Under the pieces are notes generated by a model. It was not told where the DNA came from. It did no database searches and worked only from the letters and a program-made list of their open reading frames with translations. The translations under genes and the position numbers were made by a program. From positions 224,104 to 288,103 of the forward strand of contig CALWNC010000001.1 in the NCBI GenBank assembly GCA_944382715.1: a stretch of 64,000 bases of DNA, written 5' to 3'. This document shows, piece by piece, positions 43,133-58,749 of the stretch (position 1 is its first letter; every line of letters starts with the position of its first letter). This DNA is from an uncultured Clostridia bacterium. Its GTDB lineage: Bacteria; Bacillota; Clostridia; Christensenellales; UBA1242.

Positions 43133-43459
43133 ATGAAAAAAGATTTTACTTATGATGATATAATTTATAGAATAGGTTATTTTAGAAATATAAATAATAT
43201 TTCTGCTAGAGATTTGAGTCTTCAATTAGGTTATAGTGAATCAGAGATAAATAGAATTGAAAGAAAAACTATAAAACTTAAAGTTTCAACCTTATTAAAT
43301 ATTTTAGAAATATTTGATATAACACCTATTGAATTTTTCTATCCAAATCTAGAAGACTACAAAATAGATATGGAATTATTAAACTTATTTTCACAATTGA
43401 AAAGTGAGGATAAAAAATCATTAATTCAATTAATCTCAAAAATAATTAAAGCGAAATAA
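43133..43459 (+). CDS. XRE-family HTH regulator
   Basis: 108 aa. ISARDLSLQLGYSESEINRIERK is a typical HTH_3. Confidence 0.7.
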   Translation: MKKDFTYDDIIYRIGYFRNINNISARDLSLQLGYSESEINRIERKTIKLKVSTLLNILEIFDITPIEFFYPNLEDYKIDMELLNLFSQLKSEDKKSLIQLISKIIKAK

Positions 43460-43463
43460 ACTG

Positions 43464-43997
43464 ATGACTACTACTGAAGAAAAAGAATACATTAATACAC
43501 TTGTTAAAAAGTTAAAATTTAATGATGAAATAACATTTGAATCTTTGTATAAAATAATGTACAAAAAGTTATATATTTATTTAAAATTCTTAGGTGCTGA
43601 TGACTTTACTATTGAAGATGTAATTTCCAGCACTTTTATTATTGTTTATCAAAAAGCAAAACACAAAATTTTTTATAAGAATTGTTATTATTGGATATTA
43701 AAAATCTCTAAATATACATTTTATAATTACAATAGAAAATATAAAAAAGATGTTAGCTATGAACTAATTCAATATGAAAAAATTGATATTAGCCAAAACG
43801 GAATTGCAGAACATTTATCATTAATTGATATTTTAAATAATCTGCCGAATATTGAAAAACAAATCTTACAGCTAAAAATATATCAAGGATTAACAAATAA
43901 ACAAATCTCGAAAATTTTAAATATATCCGAATCAACAATTATTCGAAAATTTAATCATATAAAAGAATATATAGAAAGGAATAATTTTTATGAATAA
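43464..43997 (+). CDS. sigma-70-family (ECF/TcdR-like size) RNA polymerase sigma factor
   Basis: 177 aa. Region-4 HTH: LTNKQISKILNISESTIIRKFNHIKEYI. Region-2-like N-terminal half. Confidence 0.65.
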   Translation: MTTTEEKEYINTLVKKLKFNDEITFESLYKIMYKKLYIYLKFLGADDFTIEDVISSTFIIVYQKAKHKIFYKNCYYWILKISKYTFYNYNRKYKKDVSYELIQYEKIDISQNGIAEHLSLIDILNNLPNIEKQILQLKIYQGLTNKQISKILNISESTIIRKFNHIKEYIERNNFYE

Positions 43998-44649
43998 AAA
44001 AATGCAAAAAGATATTAATGAATATTTTGATAAAGAATCCCCTGAACCAAATATGGAAACCTTTAGAAAAATAAAAGAACATATTTATAATAATCAAAAT
44101 CAAAAAAAACAGACGCTTAAATATGTACTACCTATGGCATCTATTGTAATAATAACAGTTATCTCTATTATATTCACATTAATACTTACAAATAAAACAC
44201 CACCAAGTAACCCAACCACTCCCCCTAATTACTATATGGATAGCACATTAACAAAAACTGATACAAATATAGAGTTTTTACAAGATTATATATCAAATTA
44301 TTATAAAAAATATGATTTTATTTTTTCAGAAGATTATGAAATATATGAGTGTTCAAAATTTTCTCATGAAGGAAATATTAAAATGTTAAATATAAAATTG
44401 TATAATAATTTACCACCCTTTACAGAGATAGAGATGATTTTAATTATAGATAATCTATTAATTTATAGTGATGATGATAATTTTAAAACTTCTGCAATAA
44501 TTACAACTACAAATAATTACAAAATGTATTATAAAGAAATTGAAGGATTGTATATGAATAAAATTAATGTTCTTTTTGAATATGAAAATTATAGATTATA
44601 TTTATCTTTTAATATGCAAGATACAGAGTTACTAGAAAAATTTAAATAA
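43990..44649 (+). CDS. single-pass membrane protein, putative anti-sigma factor
   Basis: Overlaps the sigma gene by 8 nt. 44-aa cytoplasmic N-terminus, one TM segment (aa ~45-66), and a ~150-aa external domain. Confidence 0.4.
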   Translation: MNKKMQKDINEYFDKESPEPNMETFRKIKEHIYNNQNQKKQTLKYVLPMASIVIITVISIIFTLILTNKTPPSNPTTPPNYYMDSTLTKTDTNIEFLQDYISNYYKKYDFIFSEDYEIYECSKFSHEGNIKMLNIKLYNNLPPFTEIEMILIIDNLLIYSDDDNFKTSAIITTTNNYKMYYKEIEGLYMNKINVLFEYENYRLYLSFNMQDTELLEKFK

Positions 44650-44672
44650 TTTTAAAATTTTTTGACAGTTTT

Positions 44673-44707
44673 ATACCTCCTTATGACATTTATTAGTAAG
44701 GAGGTAT
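44673..44707 (+). promoter_or_regulatory. 11-bp perfect hairpin sequestering the RBS of the peptidase gene (or weak terminator)
   Basis: ATACCTCCTTA (44673-44683) pairs with TAAGGAGGTAT (44697-44707). The 3' arm contains the SD AAGGAGG for the ATG at 44713. Confidence 0.55.
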
Positions 44708-44712
44708 TTTAT

Positions 44713-45543
44713 ATGATAAAAAAATTATTAGCAGTGTTAGGGGTGTTTATTTTAATTTTTAGTAATAATGTAATTAATGTTACAAATTCTTCAAATGCTA
44801 TTTATAGAGAAAAATATTATTGTGGCACAAATTATTTTGACACAGGATTAAATTTTACACATATTGAAAATGAAGTATATTATGATGATTATGAAATAAT
44901 AGATAATCATTTAGAAAGATTTTGTCCAAATTATGATAATATAAATCATACAAATTCTTGTGCACCATTGGCAGGAACAATATTAATTGGTTACTATGAT
45001 TATGAATATGAAAATCTTATTCCTAATTTTGTTTCAGGTTCATATTACAATAATATTTTTACTTATAGACCTAGAACAAGTAAAGTTCAAGCAGTAAAAG
45101 ATAGCCTTTATAATCTCATGGGAACAAATTCAATTGAACCAGGAACTTCCGTTAATCAATTTAAAACAGGTCTTCAATCTTATGTAAATAATAGTGGATA
45201 CAATATATCCTATAACTCTTGTGGTAGTAATTTTAATCTACAAACAGCTTTAGGTTATTTTAATAGCGAAATGCCTATAGCTTTATTTTTAACAGGCTAT
45301 GAATATTATCCTGAAAATGGATTATTTAGAGAAGAAGGTCACTATTCAATGGGAGGACGATTAAGTTCAGGCACACATGTTTGCATAGCATATGGTTACA
45401 GACAACTAAATTATTATAATGATGGAGAGCTGTTTAGAAGTGATAATTATTTAATTGTTGTTTATGGAGACGGCACTCAAGGACTTTTAGCACTTAATAC
45501 AAATACTGGTATAGATGAAGCATATGGCATAGATATTTATTAA
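44713..45543 (+). CDS. secreted papain-fold cysteine peptidase-like protein
   Basis: Signal peptide MIKKLLAVLGVFILIF. Candidate Cys (NSCAPLAGTILIGYY) and His (GTHVCIAYGY) motifs resemble C10/C39-like peptidases. Weak call. Confidence 0.4.
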   Translation: MIKKLLAVLGVFILIFSNNVINVTNSSNAIYREKYYCGTNYFDTGLNFTHIENEVYYDDYEIIDNHLERFCPNYDNINHTNSCAPLAGTILIGYYDYEYENLIPNFVSGSYYNNIFTYRPRTSKVQAVKDSLYNLMGTNSIEPGTSVNQFKTGLQSYVNNSGYNISYNSCGSNFNLQTALGYFNSEMPIALFLTGYEYYPENGLFREEGHYSMGGRLSSGTHVCIAYGYRQLNYYNDGELFRSDNYLIVVYGDGTQGLLALNTNTGIDEAYGIDIY

Positions 45544-45569
45544 ATCAATATAAAATTAAAATAAAACAC

Positions 45570-45603
45570 AAAGGCTATGTAATTTTTACATAGCCTTTTT
45601 TTA
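45570..45603 (+). terminator. intrinsic terminator
   Basis: AAGGCTATGTAA ttt TTACATAGCCTT followed by TTTTT. Confidence 0.8.
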
Positions 45604-45615
45604 TGGAGAATATAG

Positions 45616-45945
45616 ATGAATAATGCCAAAGAAAAATTAGAGTCATATAAAATTAATAAAATACTAAAAAAGGACTTAGAAAACGAATTAAAACATAATA
45701 GCACAAATGAATTTATAAAAAATGAATATATAAAATTAGACAATGAGTTAAAATTAATTGAAACGATAATTACAAATTTGTCTCAACCATATAAGAGCAT
45801 CTTATATTATAAATTTATAAAGGAAGATTCCTATCAAAATATAGCTATAAAATTAAACTATTCTATTCAAAGGATTTATCAGTTACTAAATGAATCTTTT
45901 AAAAAATTTGAAGAAACTTATCAAAATGCTTTAAAACAAAAATAA
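45616..45945 (+). CDS. sigma-70 region-4-like small transcription regulator (phage late-activator type)
   Basis: 109 aa. SYQNIAIKLNYSIQRIYQLLNESFKKF is an HTH. Resembles 54900..55208. Confidence 0.45.
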   Translation: MNNAKEKLESYKINKILKKDLENELKHNSTNEFIKNEYIKLDNELKLIETIITNLSQPYKSILYYKFIKEDSYQNIAIKLNYSIQRIYQLLNESFKKFEETYQNALKQK

Positions 45946-46207
45946 AAATATATTTGATAATTAATTAACAAAAATAATGTAATAATTATTTCAATAACTA
46001 CAATATAGATAAACTATCTATGTTATATAATTTATTTATGAAAACTAAAAAAATAAAATATCTCCTTTATATGTTTTTATCTTCGACTTAATTATATTAA
46101 AAATCAAAATTTTATTATTTTAAAACATATGAAATATATAATAAAATTTGTTTCTAAAAAACATAAAGAATTAATATAAAAAACATTCAAAAAACTCAAT
46201 TTGAGAT

Positions 46208-46275
46208 CCTGGCGTGTGCTTGTCTTGATATGATACGAGTGGTGTCGCTTCGCTCCACCAGACAAGCACACGCCA
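46208..46275. repeat. GC-rich 17-bp perfect-stem hairpin
   Basis: CTGGCGTGTGCTTGTCT (46208-46224) pairs with AGACAAGCACACGCCAG (46259-46275). 34-nt loop. Confidence 0.85.
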
Positions 46276-46496
46276 GAATCAAACTAAACTGAAAAAATAA
46301 GACTAATTTTTTAACGAAAATAAATAATAATTTTTTAAAAACAAAATTAAAAATTAAGGCAATTTTAGTAGATAAAACAGACTTAATTTTATTAGATAAT
46401 AAAGTAAGCATAAATTAAATTTATTCGTTAAATAAATAGAATTTTAACCCTTGAAAAATTTATCTAAAAAATCATAAATTTAATCTTGGGTAATAA

Positions 46497-46578
46497 CAAA
46501 ATCACGGCAACAATGCATGGGTTCGTGCGCAGGCTTTCCACGAGACCCATTGCATTTTTTTATTGCCGTGATTTTGTT
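46497..46578. repeat. GC-rich 82-nt long imperfect hairpin
   Basis: ACAAAATCACGGCAA (46497-46511) pairs with TTGCCGTGATTTTGT (46564-46578). Inner arms CAATGCATGGGTTCGTG / CACGAGACCCATTGCATT carry two bulges. Confidence 0.8.
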
Positions 46579-46672
46579 TTGTTGTTTATTTTTTTATTTT
46601 AATTTCCTGCTTTTTTATTAAATATATAATTTATTTTCTTTTTTATGAATTATTGTTATTTTTTATAAAATC

Positions 46673-46715
46673 GCACTATATTTACTTAAAATTAATATTT
46701 TTAGCACTATATTTA
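46673..46715. repeat. 12-nt direct repeat pair downstream of the rep 3' end (stop at 46753)
   Basis: GCACTATATTTA at 46673-46684 and 46704-46715 (31-bp spacing). Confidence 0.6.
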
Positions 46716-46752
46716 AGTATTTTTATATATAATTTGCGTTTTTTATTTTATG

Positions 46753-47442
46753 TTAAGAATATGCTTTAGGCATTTTCTCAATTACTTCTTCGCAAACTTC
46801 TCCCATATATTCACCTTCTACTAAACACTTAAATTTATCGGATAAAAGTATTTTCTTATCTTCCATACCTATCGGACAAATTATATCATCTTCTAAAATA
46901 TCTGACACAAAATACATTGGTAAATTTTTAGAATAAACAATTTTTTCATTAGTTTTTTCTAGGTATTTTACAAGATATGCAATAGCACTTCCAAGTCGTT
47001 TTTCATAAGGATTTATTTCTTTAAAATCACTTCTTCCAAACCTTTCATTAAAGTATGTATTTTGAAATGTTGTCTGCATTTTATTATACTGCGTGCTATA
47101 ATCTCTTACTTCTATTATTTCACCTGGCATTGTGCCATCTGGTATATTAAATAGTCCGTGAAAATGTAATCTATTTGTCTTTGGTGCTCGTTCCCAAACA
47201 CCCATATATTTTCAATTTTTTCTTTCGGTTAAATGTCTAAAACAAGTTCTAAGTTTTTTCTTAAATGTGTCTTCCGTATGCTTTTTATCATCATAAGTAA
47301 AGGTGCAAAAATAATTAAAATTTGCTAGATTTGCTTTTCTTACCATACGCACTTTTTTGCAAATTAAATTTCTTTTTACCCTTTCAAAATTTGCATTTAC
47401 AAAATCTTCGCATCTTTTTTCAGTTGTAAAATACGGTAGCAT
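46753..47442 (-). CDS. HUH rolling-circle replication initiator (Rep), interrupted by one in-frame TGA
   Basis: Motif 1 FCTFTYDD lies in ORF 47212..47442. HUH motif RLHFHGLF and Tyr motif AIAYLVKYLEK lie in ORF 46753..47205. The ORFs share a frame and are separated only by TGA (47212-47214) AAA TAT ATG. Confidence 0.65.
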
Positions 47443-47477
47443 TTCTTTATAAATTATCTGCCATCTTTCTTTTTTCT

Positions 47478-47825
47478 TTACATAAGAATATTTGCGATAT
47501 AATTCGTTAAATAACTCCTTTTTAGTTGTTTTTCTAGTATTTTTAGGCTTTTTGCATTATTTTTGGTATCATTTGCACTTTTTTCATCTTCTTCAAAAGG
47601 CAATTCATAAGGTCCTTCGAGTTCTTTAAATGGTATAATATAAGGTTCTTCTTCAACTTCTTCCACCGTATTATCTGTTTCATTAGCAAAATCATTAACT
47701 GTTTCTTCTTTAACTTCAATAAGTTCTTCAGGTGGTTTTGGTCTATGTTTTACCTTTCTAGTGGTGTGAGGAATACCTATATAATGACTTCCATCAAAGT
47801 ATACTTTTGTTCCTGGATACAGCAT
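47478..47825 (-). CDS. hypothetical acidic protein
   Basis: 115 aa. The start overlaps the upstream stop. Confidence 0.45.
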   Translation of the reverse strand: MLYPGTKVYFDGSHYIGIPHTTRKVKHRPKPPEELIEVKEETVNDFANETDNTVEEVEEEPYIIPFKELEGPYELPFEEDEKSANDTKNNAKSLKILEKQLKRSYLTNYIANILM

Positions 47826-48127
47826 TATTTAATGCTTAAATTCGCATCTTTGTTAGCCTGTTCCTTTTTTAGTTTTTGTTCTTGTTTATTAAGTTTCTTT
47901 TTTTGCTTCTTTAATTTTTTATTTTCCTTTATTAACTCCTTTTGAAATCTTTTATCTTCTTTATCTATTTTTCTAAACATCTTTTTTAAGTTCTTAAAAA
48001 TATACTTACTTATTTTACTGTTATATTTTTCAGGCACAAAGTCAGCAGTATCTAGTGTTAAACTAAATGTTTTGTAATACTCTGAAAGAACATCATTAAT
48101 AAGGTCATTTTTATTAAAATTAAGCAC
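47825..48127 (-). CDS. hypothetical Lys-rich protein
   Basis: 100 aa with a C-terminal KKLKKQKKKLNKQEQKLKK. Confidence 0.4.
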   Translation of the reverse strand: MLNFNKNDLINDVLSEYYKTFSLTLDTADFVPEKYNSKISKYIFKNLKKMFRKIDKEDKRFQKELIKENKKLKKQKKKLNKQEQKLKKEQANKDANLSIK

Positions 48128-48947
48128 AGTCTTTTCTCCTTGTAGAGTTTGTTAGATAGTATTTCTCTGGAAGTTCATCATCATTTTCTTGCAAGTATTT
48201 TATGTATCCTTCAAGAGTATTTTCTATTTCCGTACTTTCTTTTAAATCAAAGTCTTCATCAAAGTGTCCTGCATAGAACTTTGGTTTACAGCTTCTGCTA
48301 TCATAACAAGCAAAGACATTGTATTTTGCTACAACAACTTTTTCTTCATAGCAACCTGTATCCTTTTTACCACTAGACATATACCTTTCAAACAAAGCTG
48401 AATTTTCTATTATCCTTATAGTCCATCTAAGTTTGCAAGGTTTACCATATTCATCATAAGAAATTTTAAGTTTTATTATTTCAATAAACTGCGAAAGCTC
48501 TCTAATGTTTACATCAATAAGCATAGGGCGTTGAGTATCAAGAAATATATCAAGATTATTATGCCCGTGTTGTTCATACCATCTGCTTTGCCACTCTGGA
48601 AAATATTTACTCATACGAGAGTTTAAGTATTTTTGTGCTTCCGTTATACCAATAACTTCATACGGAAAATTGAAATGCGTCTTTACATAAGGATTATCAA
48701 AACCCAGTCTAAAAGGGTTTATTATCCTGCTTTTTCTTGGGTTATATCCATACTTTTTAAAGGTTATTGCATAGTTAGAACTAACTACATGCTTTGGTAT
48801 AGATAAATTAAAACCATTGTTATTCTTGTTTTTTATCTCGCTACGCATCATATAACTTCTTTGCTTATCAAACGCATACTCATATAGCAAATGTGTCATA
48901 AAACAAGTTTTTCCAGTTCTTGGTGGTGCAAAAATTATAGTAATCAT
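48120..48947 (-). CDS. Zot / inovirus pI-like P-loop morphogenesis ATPase
   Basis: MITIIFAPPRTGKT (Walker A at the extreme N-terminus). VIGITEAQKYL (Walker B, hhhhxEAQ). HGHNNLDIFLDTQRPMLIDVNIRELSQ matches the Zot-family HRHxGxDiixxTQ block. Confidence 0.65.
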   Translation of the reverse strand: MITIIFAPPRTGKTCFMTHLLYEYAFDKQRSYMMRSEIKNKNNNGFNLSIPKHVVSSNYAITFKKYGYNPRKSRIINPFRLGFDNPYVKTHFNFPYEVIGITEAQKYLNSRMSKYFPEWQSRWYEQHGHNNLDIFLDTQRPMLIDVNIRELSQFIEIIKLKISYDEYGKPCKLRWTIRIIENSALFERYMSSGKKDTGCYEEKVVVAKYNVFACYDSRSCKPKFYAGHFDEDFDLKESTEIENTLEGYIKYLQENDDELPEKYYLTNSTRRKDCA

Positions 48948-49834
48948 AATTCCACCTCACTTTTGGAAAAATCATCTTCTATAACTTCATCATCAATTAC
49001 TTCAAACTTTGCATATAAAGATAAATCACTATTAAGAGTAAATCTATTGTTATACTCATTGCCATTTTTATCTACAAAACAAATAAAGTTTTCATCACTG
49101 AGAATTGGGAGCGTAATTTCTGTTCCTGCTTTAACCTTTATTGTCTTATAAACTCTATTTTCTATGTAAAGAGTGAGTGAGTTATAGTCGCTATCATTTG
49201 TGTATAAACTATCTATTTTAGACACCTTAACAGTAAAATCATTTCTGCTAAAATATGTATTCCATAAACTATTAGTTTCTTCTCCGTTATAGATAAACAC
49301 TTTAAGCCTGCACGAGTTTTTATAGAAATCTAACTCTAACTGCATTGTATCTTCTGCTTTGAGTATCAAGTTTCCATCTAAATCCCTGTCATAAAACGAG
49401 TAGTTATATCTAGCAATTATATATGAGTTATTTTCGCTTATATCTTCACTTAAAATCTCGCAAGGGAAATCATTTACATAGATTATATACTTCTCATTTT
49501 CTTCAAGAGAAATGCTTTCATTTTTGTTAAAAGTAAGCGAAAAATAACCATCTTTATTAGTCAAAACAACATTGTTAAATGAAAATGTTATATCTTCGTT
49601 TAACTCTTCTTCCGTTACTTCGTTTTTAGAAATTAAACTAGATAATTCTCCGTAAATTCCACCACTTGCTGAGTAATAATTGTTAATATGACCATAGCTT
49701 ATTATTGCAGTAAAAACTAAAGCAAATAATAAACAAAGTCCCGTAACAATTCTAACGGGTTTATATTTCCCAAATATTCCAATTAGCAAGATTATAATTA
49801 TTAAAATTAAAACATACTTTAAGTTTCCAAACAT
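48944..49834 (-). CDS. N-terminally membrane-anchored beta-rich protein (virion/assembly candidate)
   Basis: 296 aa with 2 N-terminal TM segments. ATGA overlap with the Zot-like gene. Confidence 0.45.
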   Translation of the reverse strand: MFGNLKYVLILIIIILLIGIFGKYKPVRIVTGLCLLFALVFTAIISYGHINNYYSASGGIYGELSSLISKNEVTEEELNEDITFSFNNVVLTNKDGYFSLTFNKNESISLEENEKYIIYVNDFPCEILSEDISENNSYIIARYNYSFYDRDLDGNLILKAEDTMQLELDFYKNSCRLKVFIYNGEETNSLWNTYFSRNDFTVKVSKIDSLYTNDSDYNSLTLYIENRVYKTIKVKAGTEITLPILSDENFICFVDKNGNEYNNRFTLNSDLSLYAKFEVIDDEVIEDDFSKSEVEL

Positions 49835-51168
49835 AATTCCACCTCACTTAATCGGTAAATTTGTTTGCTACTATCTGTTATTTCATAAATCGTAAAATCT
49901 TTATCTTCTATTATTTTTCTGAGTGTTATTCCAAGTTCGCTTAAATCAAGATTAATTTTCACATAGCATTTATTTTTGTAGTTATTCCAATATGTTTTAA
50001 AGTTATCACTTAACTTTAAGTCATAAACACCAAACGCATCTGTTGAAATAAAATCTAAATCATCTATACCTGCGTTTATAAAGACTTTTCCAACTTGGTA
50101 TTCTGTCATTGTGTTATCTTCTGGCTCTGCGTTATAGTCCATACTCCCTGCATAAGCGTTAAATAAACTTTGAGTAGAACTTGTCATCTTTCCACTATTA
50201 ATCTTAACTTTTATCTTAAAGTAATTTGCAAAGTCGCTATAAAGTTTTACACTTTCATCTTCGGTTATATTTAATTTACCCATTGAACCATCACTATTAA
50301 TTGTATAAAAGTTAAATATGTCTGGCATCTTAACATAGGTTTCAATCGAGTTAGAACTTTCACTTAAACTAGAAAGTGAGTTAGCCATAGACTCAATAAA
50401 ATAGTATAAATCCAACGCCCTGTAATAAGTTGTGTAATCGTAATAGTGGGTAACTTTATTAAAGTTTGTATGCTCCCAGCAATATGTATTATCTCCAACT
50501 TTTGTTAGGTCATCTGTTTGTATCATTTCTTTTCCACTGCTATTAAAATATGTGTCATAGTCTTTAAATTTCATACCATAAACTTTGTTACCTAATGTTA
50601 TTTTAAAACTTTCATTTCCTGTTTTAAGTTCTTCTCCAACTAAAACTGTATCATCATAATTTTGGTATTCGTAAAGGTCAAAATTATCATAGATTTTTTC
50701 GGTTAAAATTACATTGTAGTAACTCTCATAAATTTTAGTTTTAACAATAAAATACAAAGTTTCGTTGTAAGAAAGTTTATCTTTTTCAACGCATTCAGTT
50801 GTAAGTTCTGTGTTGTAAGAACCAGTGTAAGCATCTATATTTTTTACTTTAAAAGGGCTACCTTCTTTCAAAATTAGTTGCACACCTTGACTATAAAAAT
50901 CCGTTGCCGTGCTACTCATAAAATAATTAAATTTAATTTCAAGAACATTATCGAATAAATTAAATTCTGCAAATACTCTTTTATCTTCAATTGTTTCACC
51001 TGTAACTTCATCTAGTTTAGTTGTCTTTAAATCTGACACAATTACTGTTTGGTCTATTGTTTTTTCTTCTCCAAAAAAGTGCAAATAAATATACCAGCCA
51101 TCTAAACCAATACTTACAAATATTATCACTGCAATTATAAAAAACTGCATTTTTTTAAATAAATTCAT
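49819..51168 (-). CDS. N-terminally membrane-anchored beta-rich protein (virion/adsorption candidate)
   Basis: 449 aa with one N-terminal TM segment. Confidence 0.45.
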   Translation of the reverse strand: MNLFKKMQFFIIAVIIFVSIGLDGWYIYLHFFGEEKTIDQTVIVSDLKTTKLDEVTGETIEDKRVFAEFNLFDNVLEIKFNYFMSSTATDFYSQGVQLILKEGSPFKVKNIDAYTGSYNTELTTECVEKDKLSYNETLYFIVKTKIYESYYNVILTEKIYDNFDLYEYQNYDDTVLVGEELKTGNESFKITLGNKVYGMKFKDYDTYFNSSGKEMIQTDDLTKVGDNTYCWEHTNFNKVTHYYDYTTYYRALDLYYFIESMANSLSSLSESSNSIETYVKMPDIFNFYTINSDGSMGKLNITEDESVKLYSDFANYFKIKVKINSGKMTSSTQSLFNAYAGSMDYNAEPEDNTMTEYQVGKVFINAGIDDLDFISTDAFGVYDLKLSDNFKTYWNNYKNKCYVKINLDLSELGITLRKIIEDKDFTIYEITDSSKQIYRLSEVELCLET

Positions 51169-51189
51169 AAAAAACTCCTATTTTTTTAT

Positions 51190-51226
51190 TAAAAAGGCAC
51201 TAAACAGCTATTTTTGCTTAGTGCTT
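51190..51226 (-). terminator. intrinsic terminator after small coat-like gene
   Basis: Minus strand GCACTAAGC ... GCTGTTTAGTGC followed by CTTTTT. Confidence 0.6.
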
Positions 51227-51237
51227 TTCGACTTTTA

Positions 51238-51399
51238 TTATTTTAAAATTCCATTCCAACCAAAGATATTTAATATACTAGATAACCATTTAAAAAAGGT
51301 TTCAAGATAACCAAATACTTTAGCTAAAATAGATAATGGGAATGTCCCAAACAAAACTACTAAACCTACAATAAGGATTATAAAAAATAATGTTTTCAT
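51238..51399 (-). CDS. 53-aa hydrophobic protein, major-coat-protein candidate
   Basis: MKTLFFIILIVGLVVLFGTFPLSILAKVFGYLETFFKWLSSILNIFGWNGILK. GGAG lies 8 nt upstream. Below the ORF-track length cutoff. Followed by a terminator. Confidence 0.5.
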   Translation of the reverse strand: MKTLFFIILIVGLVVLFGTFPLSILAKVFGYLETFFKWLSSILNIFGWNGILK

Positions 51400-51418
51400 A
51401 TTTTTATCTCCTTACATT

Positions 51419-53824
51419 TTAGGTTCGTTCATATCTACTTTCATCTGCATAGTAGGTAAATGTAGAAGTGATTGTTTTAAATACATAGATATTATTTTCA
51501 CAGCTTACAAGTTCTGCAGAAAAACCTGAATACCAGATAAGATAAATTTCATTTCTACTTTCACTGTAAGCCCAGAAACCAATGCTTGAATTATCATTAA
51601 TTTGATAAATAATTTTTTCTTTATTTGAATTTTCAAAATATTGTGTTTCATCTAAATTATCTATTATATATTTAGCAGTTGATGTTTCTTTATAAGTTCT
51701 AAAATATATATTTTCATAGTCATAAATTTCTACATCGTTATATATGTATTCTATATTTAACCTACAATTAGACTTTTCAACTGAAACACTAAATCCCGAT
51801 TCTGTTTCAAAATAATAATATATTTCATCTTCCAAAATTAAATTAAATTTAGTTGTTTCAACATTCATTACACTTTCTGCAATAGGATATAGAATATTAT
51901 CTCTAAATAACCATAATCCACTTATGTCATTATTTTCATTATTAAAATAAAGTGTTCCAATATTAAAACTAATACCTGAAAGTGATTCTAATTTATTTAT
52001 AACATTTTCAGCTTCAACTCTTACATTATCTCTTAAATAATTGTATTGATAAATATAAGTTCCGTTGTAAAGTGTTGCTGGTTTATTATATTGTTTTTCA
52101 AGAACTTCAAGTTCATTAGTTTGTAAATGCAATTTGTAACTACCATTTAAAGATGCAAAAATTACATAGTTAGGAAAACTAGATTCTTCACAATTAAAAA
52201 TAGTGTAATCATCATATCCAAAATAATCATCTCCAAGATGCAATGTATTTGTATTTCTATCATAAATCCAAAAACCTGTTATATAACTCGCACCACCGTT
52301 ATAAATATAGTAATAATTATCGGTCATAAAATAACCATTTAAGTTGTCTGAAACATATTTACTCATTTCTTGCTTATCTTCACTCATATTGTTATAGTTT
52401 GAAATGGTAATTTTATTGAGTGCATTTGAATTGTAATAAATGTCATTTTCATTAGCCGGTTTATCTTCTTTAGTTATTGTTCTTCTTTCAAATTCATATT
52501 TACAAACTGTACAATAAATTACTTCATCATAGGTTGTTTCTGTTTTATTTTCTATTACTTTTTCACCCATAGTATGACTTGGTTCAAGAACGATTTTACT
52601 ACTAGATAAAATCTCTTTACAATTCAAACAATATGTTTCTTGAAGAATATAACCTTCAACATAACAAGTAGGTTCTATGCGTTCAACAACTTCTGTTTTA
52701 CCTTTCTTATGTCCACTTGGTTTTACTATTACATTAGTCTGTGAAATAAGTTCTCCATCTACTGTGCAGTAAACACAAATAGAGTAACTTCCTTCAGTAG
52801 TGCAGGTTGCTTTAATTAAGTTTTCTATAATTTCTTCGCCTGGAATATGTTCATGCACATTTGGATTTTTATCAAGATAATTTCTAAATTTATTAAGTTC
52901 ATTTATAGTGTCATTTATCTTATTTTCAATTTCTTGCATTTCATTTTCAAGCATAGAAACTTCTTCTTCTAAAACCACAATACGTTTTTCAATAGCATCT
53001 AACTGTGTCATATAATTTTGCATTCTTTCTGAAAAAACTGCATTTTCTGCTTCTTTTTCTTGAATTTTGCTATCATTTTCGTCAATTTGCGATTTTATTT
53101 GCTCATATTGCGATTTTTCTTCATCAGTTGCTGTGTTTTTTTCTATCTTAATAATAAGATTATAATAGGTTACATAATACTCTTTATTAATCTCATAAAG
53201 GTTATTAATTATAGTCCTATTATCTTCAATATCTCTTTGAATATTAATGATTAAATCTCCAGTATTTTTCTTTTCTTCATTTAAGTTTTTAAGCTCATCA
53301 TTAATATCTTTGATTCTATCTGTGTTGTCTTTTTTGGTTTCTTCATATTCTTTTTGTAAGTCTTCAAGGTCATTTTCTAAGCCTATAACTTTGTCTTGAA
53401 TTATAGCATCTATCTCAGATTCATCTTGATTTTCTACATAGTCAAATAGAAGTTCCCAAACTTCTTCCACTTCTAAAACTAGGGCATCTATTTGAGCATT
53501 AAGTTCTTCTTTTTGCTTTTCAAGTACAGCCACTTTTTGCTCTAAAATTGTAACTCTATTTTCAAGTTCTTGTATTCTAGCATTTAAGATTTTATCTTCT
53601 TGCTTATACTTTTCGATTTCACCTTTTAAGGTTTCAATCTCTGTTTTTAATGACTTAACATACTCGTCATTTTCATAGTCTATTTCATTGGATTTTTGTA
53701 TGTGAAAAAGTTGGTTAACGAAGTTTTGAAAACCACTGTTACTATGATACAAAACTTCGCCACCAACTCCTATAAGAAGTACACAAACTAAAATCCAAAA
53801 TATAATTTTTTGAATTTTATCCAT
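51419..53824 (-). CDS. membrane-anchored coiled-coil protein with CxxC-repeat region and C-terminal beta-repeat domain
   Basis: 801 aa. N-terminal TM, ~300-aa heptad-rich region, three TC..EG......C..C units, and three G(F/L)W(I/L/A)(Y/F) repeats. Confidence 0.5.
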   Translation of the reverse strand: MDKIQKIIFWILVCVLLIGVGGEVLYHSNSGFQNFVNQLFHIQKSNEIDYENDEYVKSLKTEIETLKGEIEKYKQEDKILNARIQELENRVTILEQKVAVLEKQKEELNAQIDALVLEVEEVWELLFDYVENQDESEIDAIIQDKVIGLENDLEDLQKEYEETKKDNTDRIKDINDELKNLNEEKKNTGDLIINIQRDIEDNRTIINNLYEINKEYYVTYYNLIIKIEKNTATDEEKSQYEQIKSQIDENDSKIQEKEAENAVFSERMQNYMTQLDAIEKRIVVLEEEVSMLENEMQEIENKINDTINELNKFRNYLDKNPNVHEHIPGEEIIENLIKATCTTEGSYSICVYCTVDGELISQTNVIVKPSGHKKGKTEVVERIEPTCYVEGYILQETYCLNCKEILSSSKIVLEPSHTMGEKVIENKTETTYDEVIYCTVCKYEFERRTITKEDKPANENDIYYNSNALNKITISNYNNMSEDKQEMSKYVSDNLNGYFMTDNYYYIYNGGASYITGFWIYDRNTNTLHLGDDYFGYDDYTIFNCEESSFPNYVIFASLNGSYKLHLQTNELEVLEKQYNKPATLYNGTYIYQYNYLRDNVRVEAENVINKLESLSGISFNIGTLYFNNENNDISGLWLFRDNILYPIAESVMNVETTKFNLILEDEIYYYFETESGFSVSVEKSNCRLNIEYIYNDVEIYDYENIYFRTYKETSTAKYIIDNLDETQYFENSNKEKIIYQINDNSSIGFWAYSESRNEIYLIWYSGFSAELVSCENNIYVFKTITSTFTYYADESRYERT

Positions 53825-53837
53825 TATCTACTTCTCC

Positions 53838-54191
53838 TTAAATATTTCTTACTAACATATTAAGCAACGACTTATCTGATGCTCTAGATGGTTTAACCTT
53901 GCACTCATAAGCTGTTCCATCTTCATCATAAGAGCGAACCATATATGAAAAGCCTTTAATAGCATTTCCACCAGCATCTTTAAACTCAAATGGTGTTGCG
54001 ATAAAGTCTGCTTCCTTTTGTCCTGCAAACACAATATCGAGTACAGTATATCCACCAAGATCTGGTGGGGTCATTAAGATTTTTACATCTATACCCCTAA
54101 TATTTCCTTTTACAAAGTATGAAAAGTATGATTTACCATTCTTTTCAAATGTTTCTCTTTCAACTTTAATTGTTCCTAAATTTTGTTCCAT
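53838..54191 (-). CDS. hypothetical beta-rich protein (ssDNA-binding candidate by position only)
   Basis: 117 aa. RBS AAGGAG. Confidence 0.4.
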   Translation of the reverse strand: MEQNLGTIKVERETFEKNGKSYFSYFVKGNIRGIDVKILMTPPDLGGYTVLDIVFAGQKEADFIATPFEFKDAGGNAIKGFSYMVRSYDEDGTAYECKVKPSRASDKSLLNMLVRNI

Positions 54192-54212
54192 AAATTACAC
54201 TCCTTAATTTTT

Positions 54213-54500
54213 TTATTTTCCAATTCTTCTCGAAATGGCTTTTGCTTCATCTTTCGACTTTCCTTGATTTAAAGCGTTTTTATATTTGTAAGCCCCAGCA
54301 TGGTCGCTTTGGCATTGAAGATAACCTGAGCGAAGACCTGCTTCGTAATCTGTAAGCTCTAAACCTTCCTTAGGTCCATGTTGGTGGACTTTAGTTTTAC
54401 GCTCATTTGCATAATCCTTTGCTCTTTTATTAGGAACTCTCCAACGGCGTTCCCTTACTTGAGTAACTTCTGTTACTTCTACTTCTTTATTTTTAGACAT
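54213..54500 (-). CDS. hypothetical basic protein
   Basis: 95 aa. RBS AAGGAGAA. Confidence 0.45.
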   Translation of the reverse strand: MSKNKEVEVTEVTQVRERRWRVPNKRAKDYANERKTKVHQHGPKEGLELTDYEAGLRSGYLQCQSDHAGAYKYKNALNQGKSKDEAKAISRRIGK

Positions 54501-54743
54501 TTTTTTCTCCTTAAATTTAAAATTTTATTTGTTTAACCTAAATTAGGTTTAATTGTTTGTTACATTTGTAACTATTAAGTTGTAGTTGTAATCTCATCAA
54601 GAACTTCAAAACAGATTGTCTTTTGCGATAACTCGTAGGTGGCCACCATTACTGAATTCAACGCTGTAACATCGTTTATTGTTTTGTCCTTGCCTTATTG
54701 ATTACACCTGCAGTATAAAACAAATTTCACAGACACACCATAG

Positions 54744-54816
54744 ACTTTATGCTTAGTTTATGAGTACTTTATATGCACTTTATACGGATTTTATATGTAC
54801 TTTGTACGGACTTTAT
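54744..54816 (+). repeat. iteron array A: 7 x 11-bp phased ACTTTAT heptamers
   Basis: Heptamers at 54744 ACTTTAT, 54755 AGTTTAT, 54766 ACTTTAT, 54777 ACTTTAT, 54788 ATTTTAT, 54799 ACTTTGT, 54810 ACTTTAT. Confidence 0.85.
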
Positions 54817-54834
54817 ATTGCTTACTAATTTTAA

Positions 54835-54876
54835 AAAAACACAAAAAAATACCATTACTTAACTGCAATGGTATTT
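54835..54876 (-). terminator. intrinsic terminator after sigma-like gene
   Basis: AAATACCATT (54847-54856) / AATGGTATTT (54867-54876) with a U-run on the minus strand. Confidence 0.7.
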
Positions 54877-54899
54877 CATCTATTTATAGTAAATTAAAC

Positions 54900-55208
54900 T
54901 TACGCTTCCTTTTTTTCTATAAATTTATCTTTAAAGAATAAAACTAATTTACGATTTAATTTTTGTATATAATCATAAGAAAAACCTAACTTATCTGCTA
55001 ATGTTTCAAATGTGTTGTTATTGATATATAGCGAATAATAAATTTCATATAATCTTGCTGGAGCAAATCTAATCGCATCATTATATTTAATTATTTTACT
55101 TGCAATAGATGCTGTCCCTAATTCTTTTGATGCTGTATCAAACATATTTTTTCTTGAATAATAAAATCTTATTTCTTTTAATTCTTCTCTAATTTCATTG
55201 GTTGTCAT
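54900..55208 (-). CDS. sigma-70 region-4-like small regulator (late-activator candidate)
   Basis: 102 aa. NNTFETLADKLGFSYDYIQKLNRKLVLFF is an HTH. RBS AAAGGAGAA. Confidence 0.45.
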   Translation of the reverse strand: MTTNEIREELKEIRFYYSRKNMFDTASKELGTASIASKIIKYNDAIRFAPARLYEIYYSLYINNNTFETLADKLGFSYDYIQKLNRKLVLFFKDKFIEKKEA

Positions 55209-55394
55209 AACTATAATTCTCCTTTCGCTTTAATTAGGGCATAAAAAAACACCCTTTCGATTGGTAATTTCTTTCGAGAATTACATTCGTCAAGGATTTA
55301 TAACCTTTTACACGAATCTTACTTATTTCGTAGTGATCTATGGTCTTACTAAGTTTACTCTGCCATAAGTTTGCAAAATAAGCGAAAAAACATT

Positions 55395-55583
55395 TTAGTT
55401 TTCAACAAATAATTTGCGTATTCTAATTTTTATTTTTCTATTAGATACTTGTTTTAATGAGATAATTGCTTTACAAACTGGACATTGACCCATCTCTTTT
55501 CCATTATGTTTCGTACACATTACATAATTAGAACATTCAGGACATCTAATGTTTCGTTTTGTATTACTGCTTAACTCACGCAT
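55395..55583 (-). CDS. Com-like zinc-ribbon protein
   Basis: 62 aa counted from the ATG at 55583, which follows AAGGAG. IRCPECSNYV...GQCPVCKAII are two CxxC pairs. Confidence 0.45.
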   Translation of the reverse strand: MRELSSNTKRNIRCPECSNYVMCTKHNGKEMGQCPVCKAIISLKQVSNRKIKIRIRKLFVEN

Positions 55584-55725
55584 AATATCAACTCCTTTTT
55601 TTCTTCTCATAGCATAAAAACTTGTATTTGAAAAACTTACTATGTGGTTGAGAAATCCATCATCTAAATTTTCCAATCTTTATGCCCTTATAAAAACATA
55701 CTTTCGGGGCTTCGTATGTAATTAC

Positions 55726-56334
55726 TTACTTTAATTCTTTTATAACTCTAACAGCGACACCTTGAATAACTATATTTTCAAAATACATATCTTCCATTTC
55801 GTTATTTTCTGGGTGTAATCTTATCATTTGTTTATCTTTATCTATATAGTATCTTTTAAGTGTTACTTCATTATCTACAAGTGCTACTATGATTTGTCCT
55901 TCCTGTGCTGATTCTTCTTTTCGTATTATTACATAATCTCCATCTTCAACACCTGCATTAATCATACTATTACCACTAGCTCTTAATATAAAAAACTCTC
56001 CTTTCCCTAAAAGTTCTTTTGGCATTGCTAAATAGTCTTCTATATTTTCTTCTGCTAATATTGGAGTTCCACAAGCGATAGTTCCAACAACTGGTATAGA
56101 TATTGTATCGTAATTTATTCTACTCATTGCTTTGGTTACAACACCATACTTTTTATCTTGTTTATCTATCATACCCATTTTCTTCATTTCACATAAATAG
56201 GAACTCACTCTGCTTTTAGATGTTTGAAGTGCATTTGCAGTTTCTCTAACTGTTGGCACTCTGTTATTCTTTATAAAAAAATCATCAATATATGATTCTA
56301 TTTTTTTCATTAGTTCTATGCTTTTTGTACGCAT
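55726..56334 (-). CDS. LexA-family S24 repressor
   Basis: 202 aa. N-terminal wHTH, VVGTIACGTPILAEENIEDY linker/cleavage region, ASGNSMINAGVEDGDYVIIRK (Ser), VTLKRYY (Lys), LHPENNEM. Confidence 0.8.
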   Translation of the reverse strand: MRTKSIELMKKIESYIDDFFIKNNRVPTVRETANALQTSKSRVSSYLCEMKKMGMIDKQDKKYGVVTKAMSRINYDTISIPVVGTIACGTPILAEENIEDYLAMPKELLGKGEFFILRASGNSMINAGVEDGDYVIIRKEESAQEGQIIVALVDNEVTLKRYYIDKDKQMIRLHPENNEMEDMYFENIVIQGVAVRVIKELK

Positions 56335-56347
56335 ACTTTTTCTCCTA

Positions 56348-56401
56348 TATAGGACATTTGTCCTATAATGGTATTATATATTCTTTATCTTTGTTTGTCA
56401 A
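56348..56401 (-). promoter_or_regulatory. consensus promoter plus SOS-box-like operator of the LexA-like gene
   Basis: Minus strand: TTGACA (56401-56396), 17-nt spacer, TATAAT (56378-56373), then the palindrome TATAGGACAaaTGTCCTATA (56367-56348). Confidence 0.65.
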
Positions 56402-56466
56402 CATTAAAATAAAGAAATTATAAAATTTAAGGTGGAATTTTTGATTTATTTTCTTTATTAAAGAAA

Positions 56467-56574
56467 TTATAAATCAATTCTTCTAGTCCTTCTGCAATAC
56501 AGTTTATATCTCCATCTTTCATATTAGATAAATCTGGTATTACATTTTCAGGTTTTAATTTTATTTTTTCCATT
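56467..56574 (-). CDS. possible 35-aa basic peptide
   Basis: MEKIKLKPENVIPDLSNMERWRYKLYCRRTRRIDL, preceded by AAGGAGG 6 nt upstream. No other support. Confidence 0.25.
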
Positions 56575-56629
56575 ACCGTCCTCCTTTTGTAGTTTTAATC
56601 TAACACAAGGCTATACGGAATGTATGAGT

Positions 56630-56680
56630 ACTTTGGTTGCATTTTATATGCAATTTATACTTACATTACACTTACTTTAT
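56630..56680 (+). repeat. iteron array B: ~5 x 11-bp phased ACTTTAT-like heptamers
   Basis: Heptamers at 56630 ACTTTGG, 56641 ATTTTAT, 56652 AATTTAT, 56663 degenerate, 56674 ACTTTAT. Shares TATGAGTACTTT and ACTTTATACGGA with array A. Confidence 0.7.
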
Positions 56681-56930
56681 ACGGACAAAAGGTGGACTAA
56701 ATACTGACACCTTATTTTTTTCATTGGTTATTGTATCAGAGAATGCTCGGCTGTCAAAGGAAAATAAATATCGCTTAAAACACTATACTTTATTATTTAA
56801 AAGTCAATATTTATTTTCTTTTTCTTTGACATCCTACACATTCCCTGATGAAAGTTTTCTTGTTGAAAAAATTTTCAACAAAGGTTTATATTAGTTTTTT
56901 TGTTGTAATTGAAGTGTATCTATACTGCAT

Positions 56931-57003
56931 ATAAAATCCGTAAAAATCTATATTCTTTCCTATATAAAGTACACATAAAGTACTTATAAAGTGCATATAG
57001 AGT
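56931..57003 (-). repeat. iteron array C (inverted): 4-5 x 11-bp phased ATAAAGT
   Basis: Heptamers at 56964, 56975 and 56986 (ATAAAGT), 56997 (ATAGAGT) and 56931 (ATAAAAT). Ends 70 nt upstream of the recombinase start. Confidence 0.8.
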
Positions 57004-57072
57004 CCATTACAATTTTTTAAAATTTAATATAACCTTAAAAAATAGAAAATAAAATAAGGAGATTTAAACAAA

Positions 57073-58578
57073 ATGAAAACAGCTGTTATTTATGCAAGAT
57101 ATTCATGCGATAGGCAAAATGAACAATCTATTGACGGACAACTTCGTGTATGTAAAGATTATGCTGAAAAAAATGGAATATTTATTATTGATGAATATAT
57201 CGACAAAGCTGTAACTGGAACTAATGATGATAGAAAAGCATTTCAAAAAATGTTATCTGATAGCGACAAAAAAGTTTGGGATTATGTTTTAGTTTACAAG
57301 TTAGATAGATTTTCAAGAAATAAATATGAAATGGCAATGCATAGAATGCATTTAAAAGAAAATAATATCACTATTTTATCAGCAATGGAAAATATACCAG
57401 AAGGTCCTGAAGGAATTTTACTTGAAAGTTTACTTGAAGGTATGAACCAATACTACTCTGAAGAATTATCTCAAAAGACAAAGCGTGGTTTAAATGAAAC
57501 AAGACTTAAAGGTAATTTTATCGGTGGAAATGTAAATTATGGCTATGTAAGAGATGGTGCTAAACTTAAAATTAATCCAGATGAAGCTGAAGTTGTTAGA
57601 AAAATTTTTAGTGATTATGCAAATGGTAAAAGAATAACAGAAATCGCTAATGAACTTAATAATTTAGGCATTAAAAATAAAGGAAATAAATTTTTAGTAT
57701 CAACAATAAACCATTTACTTAATCACGAAAAATACACTGGTATATACAGAATTAATGGTGAAGTTTTTGATAAAATCTATCCACAAATTATAGATAAAGA
57801 AGTTTACGAAATAGTATTAAAACGAAAAAATGCTAATAGATATGGAAAACACAAGGACAATGTAAACTACTCTTTAAAAGGTAAAACTTTTTGTGGGTAT
57901 TGTGGAAAACCACTTGTTTCTTATACTGGAACATCTTGTAATGGTGATATTATTCGCTACTATAAATGCAGAAGCATTAAAGAAAAAACTAATTGTAAAA
58001 ATAAAGCAATACAAAAAGAAATTCTTGAAAATATTGTAGATAAGGCAATAAAGAAGACTTTTAATCATAATAACAATCTTAACATTTTAGTTAATAAGAT
58101 TTTAAAAATTAATGAAAAAAGAAATGCTGAAAACACTTCTTTAAATATCTTACAAGCCAACCTAGCAAAAATAAACAAAAGTTTAGCAAATATAATTTCT
58201 GCTATTGAACAAGGCATTACTACTGAATCTACAAAAGCAAGACTTCTTGAACTTGAAAAAGAAAAACGAGAAACAGAAGAAAAATTAATTATAGAACAAT
58301 CTAAACAAGTTACTATTTTAACGAAAGAGCAAATTATAAAATTCTTTAAGTATACATTAAAACAATGTCCACAAAACTTAATAGAATTACTTGTAAATAG
58401 AGTTGATGTATTTAAAGATAAAATTGAAATAACATTTAACTATACAAAGAAAACAGATAATAATTTAGTTAATGAAGAATTTTCATTTTTTAAGGAAAAA
58501 ATAAGCCAAAAAAGGAATTATAGAAACAAAACACAACATACTAAGACAATAATATTTGATATAGTTTTAAAGATATAA
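57073..58578 (+). CDS. large serine recombinase (integrase)
   Basis: 501 aa. N-terminal resolvase domain (AVIYARYSCDRQ...DGQ), recombinase domain, Zn ribbon (CGYCGKPL...YYKC), and C-terminal coiled coil. Confidence 0.85.
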   Translation: MKTAVIYARYSCDRQNEQSIDGQLRVCKDYAEKNGIFIIDEYIDKAVTGTNDDRKAFQKMLSDSDKKVWDYVLVYKLDRFSRNKYEMAMHRMHLKENNITILSAMENIPEGPEGILLESLLEGMNQYYSEELSQKTKRGLNETRLKGNFIGGNVNYGYVRDGAKLKINPDEAEVVRKIFSDYANGKRITEIANELNNLGIKNKGNKFLVSTINHLLNHEKYTGIYRINGEVFDKIYPQIIDKEVYEIVLKRKNANRYGKHKDNVNYSLKGKTFCGYCGKPLVSYTGTSCNGDIIRYYKCRSIKEKTNCKNKAIQKEILENIVDKAIKKTFNHNNNLNILVNKILKINEKRNAENTSLNILQANLAKINKSLANIISAIEQGITTESTKARLLELEKEKRETEEKLIIEQSKQVTILTKEQIIKFFKYTLKQCPQNLIELLVNRVDVFKDKIEITFNYTKKTDNNLVNEEFSFFKEKISQKRNYRNKTQHTKTIIFDIVLKI

Positions 58579-58580
58579 AA

Positions 58581-58626
58581 ACACCCGTAAAATAAGAAAT
58601 TATCTTACTTTATGGGCGTTTTTATT
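58581..58626 (+). terminator. intrinsic terminator after recombinase
   Basis: 17-position stem ACACCCGTAAAATAAGA / TCTTACTTTATGGGCGT (14 Watson-Crick pairs, 1 G-U, 2 mismatches) followed by TTTTT. Confidence 0.6.
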
Positions 58627-58630
58627 TTCT

Positions 58631-58660
58631 TAATAATAATTTGTTCTATTGGGACTACCT
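58631..58660. repeat. right terminal inverted repeat / candidate attR
   Basis: TAATAATAATTTGTTCTATTGGGACTACCT is an imperfect reverse complement of 28444-28473. Confidence 0.55.
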
Positions 58661-58749
58661 AATCCCTCCCTTATCATAATTCGGGCAGAAAATAAAAACA
58701 TTTGCATTCATATATTTTTTATGTTATCATATAATGCAAAGGAGGCAAA

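Follow-up and report, generated by a model that had tools for sequence, protein, structure and literature searches.

The 64,000-nucleotide (nt) stretch of an uncultured Christensenellales bacterium analysed here (contig CALWNC010000001.1; hereafter the window, to whose positions all coordinates refer) contains a 30.2-kb element that is probably a temperate, SOS-responsive derivative of an inovirus, with a large exchangeable cargo, belonging to a large unnamed family in gut Clostridia; in the window copy, its Rep gene is inactivated. Firstly, the element has defined ends and forms one unit. Secondly, its gene order recurs across its relatives. Thirdly, its integrase, LexA-type repressor, ATPase and Rep can each be assigned to a family. 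Fourthly, the hairpins that follow Rep are conserved. Beyond these observations, we infer that intact members would export the whole circle as a filament. The features on which this reading draws are collected in Table 1.

The extent of the element is defined by sites that lack it. Near-identical copies and empty sites were sought in contigs of metagenome runs (designated by X numbers), and a 4-kb contig of X5 matches the left flank up to 28436 and passes directly into the right flank from 58667, a flank-to-flank join that is also found in short contigs of X21 and X22. These empty sites confirm that the 30.2 kb is one integrase-bounded unit, as a preliminary description of the window had supposed. 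The same right end (to 58666/58668) adjoins different, unrelated DNA in X5 and X22, hence close copies occupy other sites. Scans of the element's open reading frames (ORFs) found a sole recombinase in the 30 kb, the serine integrase already proposed for it, in which three domains were matched; it lies at the right end, reads outward, and holds the same position in relatives. This enzyme inserted the element into an intergenic poly-C/CCCTCC site, and the inverted arms just inside the two ends have the pattern that would be expected of the attP halves of a serine integrase. A search of the relatives for the arm motif of the window returned noise only. The target poly-C tract (28429-28440) is itself variable, with nine C followed by TCC in the window, eight C followed by TCCC in X5, and four C without a T in X21. 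An initial placement of the junction at 28450/58654 was rejected, as a metagenome pattern search came back empty and the contigs put the junction 10-14 bp further out. In X1, the element and its right flank were present at 100% of words, with no contig for the left flank (26900-28469), which may be a filtering effect. The window has a low GC content (25-30%), and a recF-like gene, dnaA and dnaN (60524-63179 onward) lie ~3 kb from the element, which is hence beside the likely chromosomal replication origin.

The same data bear on the idea that the 30.2 kb is a composite, in which an ordinary inovirus prophage of ~10-12 kb sits beside or inside a separate island consisting of the ArdA arm, the Rhs gene and the sigma module, with just a small part being packaged. 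The size would suit what is known of Clostridia inoviruses, at 6.5-16 kb, and the two arms of the element do lie on opposite strands, converging at the hairpins. The cargo is also mosaic even between ~97%-identical copies: X5 and X6 carry the ArdA arm and Rhs region at near-identity, while 42.2-46.1 kb is unmatched in them, hence the origin-adjacent cargo differs among close copies. Yet the 30.2 kb has a single recombinase and a single pair of ends, and all of it is absent from the empty sites. Furthermore, the PcfJ arm occurs together with the module in many species, under serine and tyrosine integrases alike, and the integrase and ArdA arm are neighbours across attP in the circle, such that neither arm has ends of its own. 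A composite is therefore an improbable explanation.

The backbone of the element recurs in a large family. Homologues of the ATPase form 856 protein clusters, nearly all of them unnamed, and 149 loci were identified in species-representative genomes, most from Christensenellales-like Clostridia of animal and human guts, including two from the cultured isolates Pumilibacter muris (CLA-AA-M08, locus L055, in which Rep is intact) and Anaerocaecibacter muris. Across the 89 loci that were fetched, which underlie all synteny counts, the Zot-like ATPase and p100 (a 100-aa basic protein) are present in 87-89, Rep in 67, and p95, p117 and p53 (small proteins named for their lengths) in 41-48, with the integrase found upstream in 32 of the 62 loci that have enough upstream flank. 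The shared order begins with the integrase, LexA-type repressor, small regulators, sigma-like factor, p95, p117 and the 53-aa membrane protein, and continues through fast-evolving membrane-anchored proteins, the Zot/pI-family ATPase, p100 and Rep to two hairpins, a cargo slot and an inverted ArdA-PcfK-PcfJ arm. This inverted block (p102-PcfJ-PcfK, with or without ArdA) is found 1.9-7.7 kb past Rep in 24 of the 52 loci with enough downstream flank, and its recurrence beyond a variable slot across relatives means it is part of the backbone, not the cargo. Hence the original estimate of 17 kb of cargo, which counted the ArdA block, does not hold, and the variable slot in the window amounts to ~12 kb (34.1-46.0 kb), between the origin and the ArdA-PcfK-PcfJ block.

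The slot between Rep and the PcfJ arm differs from locus to locus. Judged by Pfam domains only, the cargo in L001, L003, L017 and L005/L006 includes aminoglycoside-resistance-type PF10706, GNAT and metallo-beta-lactamase-fold genes, two DNA methylases together with GmrSD, and a gene of the EF-G family resembling tet(M). Acetyltransferase, RNase III, Dnd-like and helicase genes are also among the slot contents of the relatives. The Rhs cassette of the window (the p198/Rhs/p233 set) also occupies the cargo slot of two other species (L031 and L075). Across the family, cargo ranges from 2 to >13 kb, reaching 13.8 kb in L091, and the whole of L017 spans ~18 kb.

The ATPase links this family to the filamentous phages. 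The motifs by which it was originally recognised are present (Walker A at residue 10, hhhhxEAQ and HGHxxLDIFLDTQ), and a profile search matched PHROG_197 ('Zot-like toxin') at 8e-10. In a Pfam scan of 24 members of the ATPase family, 16 matched Zot and no other family, and the family profile retrieved a sole chain from the PDB, 2r2a (4.7e-5), which is the N-terminal domain of Neisseria Zot. The same structure ranked first in a Foldseek search with the AlphaFold model (pLDDT 68), at 6e-8, whereas FtsK and RecA trailed at 3e-4 or worse; in BFVD, a viral structure library, the named top matches were Inoviridae Zot. Among deposited phages, the closest match comes from bajarodino virus 12 (PQ006185), a circular 9.8-kb inovirus, whose Zot protein shares 31% identity (6e-22). 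Hence sequence profiles and the predicted fold support assignment to the Zot/pI family, though as a distant member.

The second diagnostic protein, Rep, was correctly placed among the HUH endonucleases, but it was overlooked that the gene in the window is a pseudogene in three pieces. In relatives, Rep is a single protein of 339-347 aa that matches PF23343 (REP_ORF2-G2P), and HFH and YxxKY motifs are present, which supports assignment by sequence to the two-tyrosine HUH family of G2P/ORF2 type. With this Rep in intact relatives, the Zot/pI ATPase, and a 9.8-kb inovirus as the closest phage, the proposal of an inovirus-like module is upheld. In the window, Rep is split into ORFs of 115, 76 and 150 aa, of which the first (47478-47825) aligns to the N-terminus, by two lesions: a 1-nt deletion near 47548 that changes the frame, and a TGG>TGA change at 47212-47214, upstream of the HUH motif, at a Trp found in all relatives. 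Independently assembled contigs of X1 and X3 match both lesions exactly, while the ~97%-identical copies in X5 and X6 have the intact states, with TGG present and one extra base after 47548; hence the lesions are genuine and arose recently. Of the 63 relatives in which no contig end interrupts the gene, 60 have an intact Rep.

That the in-frame TGA sits exactly on a conserved Trp, in a host of low GC content, could be taken to mean that it is read as Trp, through an alternative code or programmed read-through, leaving the window copy functional. This is very improbable. TGA ends six of the 60 long ORFs in the window, one of them in the module itself, the separate 1-nt deletion breaks the frame as well, the close copies have TGG plus the extra base, and the 60 intact relatives each have one uninterrupted ORF. 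An alternative code was therefore rejected, TGA being an ordinary stop in the window and Rep having a separate frameshift. Instead, the window copy most likely no longer replicates or spreads alone, persisting as a fixed island with an Rhs toxin-immunity cassette, and is probably immobile unless complemented by a relative. Such complementation of the broken Rep in trans is conceivable, as many related elements co-exist in the X1 chicken-gut sample, but as Rep is inactivated, induction of the window strain would probably release nothing.

The GC-rich hairpins reported after Rep are present as two conserved structures, H0 and HB. In relatives, H0 begins right at the Rep stop codon and HB follows ~100-180 nt downstream, whereas in the window they lie at +182 and +478 from Rep, with AT-rich DNA between. 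Across 19 sequences, compensatory changes occur at 19 of the 20 predicted pairs of H0, around an invariant loop; in HB, the outer stems are nearly invariant and the inner stem covaries, with six covarying pairs, and its 3' arm motif is found downstream of Rep in 47 of 54 relatives. Folded as single-stranded DNA (ssDNA), the hairpin region has a z-score of -7.9, and no known RNA family was found by Rfam in the window. HB is the likely origin, with the nick site expected within its unpaired motif, CTTGTATCAAG. As assembled, the bulge of HB in the window has a 5-nt insertion (~46226-46234), at a point where assemblies break and for which reads gave no confirmation. The HB stem (46239-46273) reaches a word depth of ~620 in X1, where the remainder of the element has ~80, from which it follows that many related elements co-exist in this sample; the sharing of the stem between them explains why assemblies break there.

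The remainder of the minus-strand array at 46.7-56.3 kb is largely as the preliminary description had drawn it, with a LexA-like repressor, a sigma-like regulator followed by a terminator, the 95- and 117-aa genes, 801-, 449- and 296-aa proteins with N-terminal membrane anchors, and, ahead of a terminator, a 53-aa hydrophobic protein. Of the Com-like Zn ribbon, the two CxxC motifs stand but the Com label is weak, and of the two small proteins placed after the ATPase, the 100-aa protein stands whereas the other, the 115-aa ORF, is the N-terminus of Rep. Capsid, portal, terminase and lysis families are indeed missing, by Pfam and PHROG scans of all the element's ORFs, as are tail genes, save for a tail-fibre-like domain in one cargo protein that qualifies the original claim. 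NCBIfam provides no name for any core protein.

Structural roles can be proposed for several proteins of this array. The p53 protein, for which scans of Pfam, PHROG and NCBIfam gave no family match, may be the coat protein, and p117 may be an ssDNA-binding protein of gene-V type, although its profile had no match in the PDB. The 801-aa protein is a candidate adsorption protein; the three large membrane proteins are found in just one to four loci, at ~26% identity, while the core around them is conserved. The last of them, p296, has a stop codon that overlaps the start of the ATPase.

Among the regulatory genes, the NCBIfam model identifies the repressor as a genuine homologue of LexA. The ATAAAGTRC motif, with five occurrences in the window against 0.62 expected, forms iteron regions upstream of both the p95 operon and the integrase, each oriented alike with respect to the gene it precedes. 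The pairing of these regions suggests that the two are co-regulated; a simple k-mer test found no shared repeats of this type in relatives. Between the integrase and the repressor is a 48-aa ORF (56427-56573, minus strand), with small genes called at the corresponding position in L001 (72 aa) and L008 (47 aa), that could encode a Cro-like protein or an excision factor.

In intact members, DNA damage would trigger self-cleavage of the LexA-type repressor, after which the integrase would excise the circle. Rep would then nick the conserved unpaired motif of HB, initiating rolling-circle synthesis of ssDNA, and the Zot-like ATPase, with its membrane partners, would extrude the strand across the membrane in filament form. 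The 53-aa protein would make up the coat, and the large, variable proteins would mediate adsorption. Because the volume of a filament is not set by a capsid, a cargo of 2 to >13 kb could travel along. On arrival, the ArdA arm would aid establishment in the next host, perhaps by protecting the entry of the incoming strand.

Several observations weigh against an inoviral origin. No particle, ssDNA or circular form has been recorded for any member. The size of 30.2 kb, as first noted, lies beyond that of known filamentous phages, exceeding the published inovirus range of 5-20 kb, and about half or more of the genes are on the strand opposite Rep, which is unusual for inoviruses. The ATPase scores just below the threshold for Pfam Zot (19.2 against 20.3 bits), and is without any hydrophobic or membrane segment, unlike the canonical pI architecture. 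The p53 protein lacks the basic C-terminus that major coat proteins typically have, and p117 yields a poor, all-beta model (pLDDT 58.9), for which Foldseek gave no significant match, with a lowest E-value of 0.09 and SSB folds ranking at 0.2-0.6. No relatives were found in IMG/VR, by protein and family-alignment scans, and none of Zot or Rep among 72,556 plasmid records, hence there is no sequenced episomal form. Lastly, a scaffold from human faeces deposited as 'UNVERIFIED: Bacteriophage sp.' (L091; GenBank MT835493), which has a tyrosine integrase, keeps the LexA-type repressor, sigma-like gene, p95, p117, Rep, HB, defence-type cargo and PcfJ/PcfK/ArdA arm, yet has no Zot-like or P-loop protein, with five membrane-protein genes at Zot's place.

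Some of these points would favour the main rival explanation, that of a non-viral, helper-dependent element: the missing membrane anchor of the ATPase, the atypical coat candidate, the scaffold that keeps the rest of the backbone without the ATPase, and the empty search of IMG/VR. Such an element would be either an integrative mobilisable element or an integrated rolling-circle plasmid, with Rep as its replicase or relaxase, which would make no filament and would instead transfer through the conjugation machinery of a helper. The ArdA-PcfK-PcfJ arm would then be a leading region of conjugative type, and the Zot-like ATPase and membrane proteins would serve some other function. ArdA, PcfJ and PcfK are typical of Gram-positive plasmids, and relatives of PcfJ occur in 472 plasmid records, mostly mobilisable or conjugative, but they also occur in 171 phage records; as PcfJ-domain genes are found in both plasmids and tailed phages, the arm alone is no sign of conjugation. 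Moreover, no relaxase, coupling protein or type IV secretion Pfam family was detected in any ORF of the element, and no relative occurs among the 72,556 plasmid records. The best relatives of the ATPase in both sequence and fold are inovirus Zot, rather than FtsK/VirD4-type proteins, Rep is of the family found in filamentous and Microviridae-type phages, and hypervariable surface proteins beside a conserved core fit a role in receptor binding. Hence a non-viral origin is unlikely, and an inovirus-derived element remains the preferred interpretation. The stronger version of this interpretation is more tentative: it is possible, though rather doubtful, that intact members are true filamentous phages packaging 18 to >30 kb of ssDNA, which would make theirs the largest inovirus genomes known, shuttling interchangeable cargo (Rhs toxins, tet(M)-like and aminoglycoside-resistance-type genes, restriction and defence systems) between Christensenellales-like gut bacteria, with the plasmid-style ArdA-PcfK-PcfJ arm guarding the strand.

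In the window, the cargo includes an Rhs protein with a core ending in ...TDPSGH, beyond which lies a C-terminal domain of ~190 aa that is hydrophobic and rich in Gly. It is followed by p147, a small membrane protein that is likely to confer immunity. Downstream of this pair, p233 starts within the conserved end of an Rhs core (LYYLNSRYYDPETGRF...) and has a Gly-rich hydrophobic tail of its own. It is reasonable, by family membership, to regard the island as carrying an interbacterial toxin; PADLOC returned weak HTH matches only for the cargo. A 349-aa cargo protein (41793-42842, plus strand) has a C-terminal domain of tail-fibre/baseplate type (Gp10_C, 2.9e-20; phrog_6465 'tail protein', 1e-22), which is odd in an element without tail genes.

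Table 1. Coordinates of the integrative element and its features within the window.
Feature	Position	Strand	Evidence or remarks
Whole integrative element	28441..58669		~30,229 bp, ends uncertain by ~6 bp; empty-site contigs of X5, X21, X22
attL core CCCTCC	28435..28440		End of poly-C tract; common to attL, attR and X5 empty site
Left attP-type half-site arm CCCAATAGAACGGATTATT	28451..28469		19-nt inverted repeat of 58635-58653, 2 mismatches
Conserved 'establishment' arm (small ORFs, ArdA, PcfK-like, PcfJ, p102)	28834..33908	+	
ArdA	29307-29849	+	Pfam 2e-14
PcfK-like	31103-32044	+	
PcfJ	32004-33362	+	Pfam 1e-27
p102	33600-33908	+	
Cargo: p198 membrane protein, Rhs, p147, p233 with p165, 349-aa protein	34151..42842	+	
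Rhs protein, 1708 aa	34757-39883	+	RHS_repeat 2.8e-12; Rhs_assc_core 6.7e-20
Orphan Rhs C-terminal module p233 and small membrane protein p165	40440-41650	+	Downstream of rhs-immunity pair
Cargo: HTH regulator, sigma-70-like (43464-43997), two unknown proteins, small sigma-r4-like	43133..45945	+	Pfam, PHROG
Hairpin HB, candidate replication origin	46209..46276	-	Conserved unpaired CTYGT(A)TCAAG
Hairpin H0	46503..46570	-	Invariant loop AAAGCYTGCG
HUH Rep pseudogene	46753..47825	-	Motifs HFHGLF and YLVKYLEK; alignment and tblastn to intact 339-347-aa relatives
p100, 100-aa basic protein	47825..48127	-	Beside Zot in 87/89 loci
Zot/pI-family P-loop ATPase, 275 aa	48120..48947	-	PHROG, Pfam, PDB profile, fold; no transmembrane (TM) segment
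449-aa (1 TM) and 296-aa (2 TM) membrane-anchored proteins	48944..51168	-	Hydropathy; 4 loci, ~26% identity
Intrinsic terminator after p53	51224-51197	-	
53-aa membrane protein p53	51238-51399	-	N-terminal TM segment; conserved in 41 loci; GTWPLS...FGWNG motifs
801-aa membrane-anchored coiled-coil protein	51419..53824	-	N-terminal anchor; Cys-rich C-terminal part; 1 locus (essentially this copy)
p95 (basic) and p117	53838..54500	-	In 47-48 loci, 58-67% identity
Iteron region, ~75 nt, ATAAAGTRC repeats at ~11-nt spacing	54720..54810	-	Upstream of p95 structural operon
Regulatory genes block (LexA-type repressor, Zn-ribbon protein, sigma-r4-like regulator, terminator)	54846..56401	-	
Terminator after 102-aa regulator	54877-54846	-	
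Sigma-r4-like regulator, 102 aa	54900-55208	-	Homologues in relatives match Sigma70_r4
Zn-ribbon protein, 93 aa	55395-55676	-	Two CxxC motifs; phrog 'translational regulator' E 0.03
LexA-type repressor	55726-56334	-	Peptidase_S24 (Pfam) 5.7e-30; NCBIfam lexA TIGR00498 146.2 bits vs cut-off 110.95
Promoter of LexA-type repressor	56401-56373	-	Perfect sigma-70 consensus
Iteron region, second copy	56930..57010	+	Upstream of integrase, same orientation relative to gene
Large serine recombinase (integrase), 501 aa	57073..58578	+	Resolvase 2.3e-27, Recombinase 1.3e-16, Zn_ribbon_recom 1.7e-9
Right attP-type half-site arm AATAATTTGTTCTATTGGG	58635..58653		Inverted partner of 28451-28469, just inside right end
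attR core CCCTCC	58664..58669		Common to attL, attR and X5 empty site

This organisation is similar to that of several known mobile elements, without being identical to any of them. With the inoviruses of the Tubulavirales, such as bajarodino virus 12 and those of Enterocloster, the element shares a Zot/pI ATPase, a rolling-circle HUH Rep, and small hydrophobic and membrane-anchored proteins; it likewise has recombinase integration, a repressor module and hairpin-rich non-coding DNA by Rep, and likewise does without capsid, terminase, lysis and secretin genes. Both serine and tyrosine recombinases are known in inoviruses (PMC6813254). Isolated inoviruses, however, have genomes of 5-15 kb, those of the 2019 catalogue range over 5-20 kb (PMC6813254), and those of Enterocloster measure 6.5-8.5 kb apart from one of 16 kb (PMC10061712), whereas the present family spans 18 to >30 kb. 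It further differs in its ATPase, which shares only 31% identity with the closest protein of any phage and is without a membrane segment, in the conserved ArdA-PcfK-PcfJ arm, the large cargo slot and the roughly half of its genes on the opposite strand, and in encoding a true LexA homologue.

Like CTXphi of Vibrio cholerae, the element appears to be an integrated, SOS-responsive relative of the filamentous phages that carries a toxin unrelated to phage functions. CTXphi has a genome of ~7 kb with ~1 kb of cargo, and relies on the XerCD and LexA of its host, whereas this element encodes its own serine integrase and LexA-type repressor and belongs to a family with cargo of 2 to >13 kb. Like the leading regions of Gram-positive conjugative plasmids (pCF10-type pcfJ/pcfK, and ardA), the element groups its ArdA, PcfK-like and PcfJ genes in one orientation at an end of DNA that may enter cells single-stranded. 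In contrast to those plasmids, it has no relaxase, coupling protein or mating-pore genes by scans of its ORFs, and PcfJ-domain genes are also present in many tailed phages. Lastly, an integrase with Resolvase, Recombinase and Zn-ribbon domains at one end, and a short shared core with inverted half-site arms, are common to the element and to SCCmec (Ccr), Tn4451 (TnpX) and phiC31-type prophages, but in contrast to other islands mobilised by large serine recombinases, the payload here is a module of filamentous-phage type.

A literature search found no description of this family, nor any paper linking inoviruses with Christensenellales, ArdA or PcfJ/PcfK. With no NCBIfam names and no relative found in IMG/VR, such elements are probably scored as plain chromosome in surveys. 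The current view is that filamentous phages have tiny genomes of 5-20 kb, with little room for cargo. Here, instead, a widespread gut family joins an inovirus-type replication and export kit to a cargo slot of 2-13+ kb and an anti-restriction arm, and its two cultured hosts give experimental access. If particles are made, then the size range of the order would grow, and filamentous phages would be serious vehicles for the exchange of toxins, resistance-type genes and defence systems among gut Clostridia that are abundant yet little studied.

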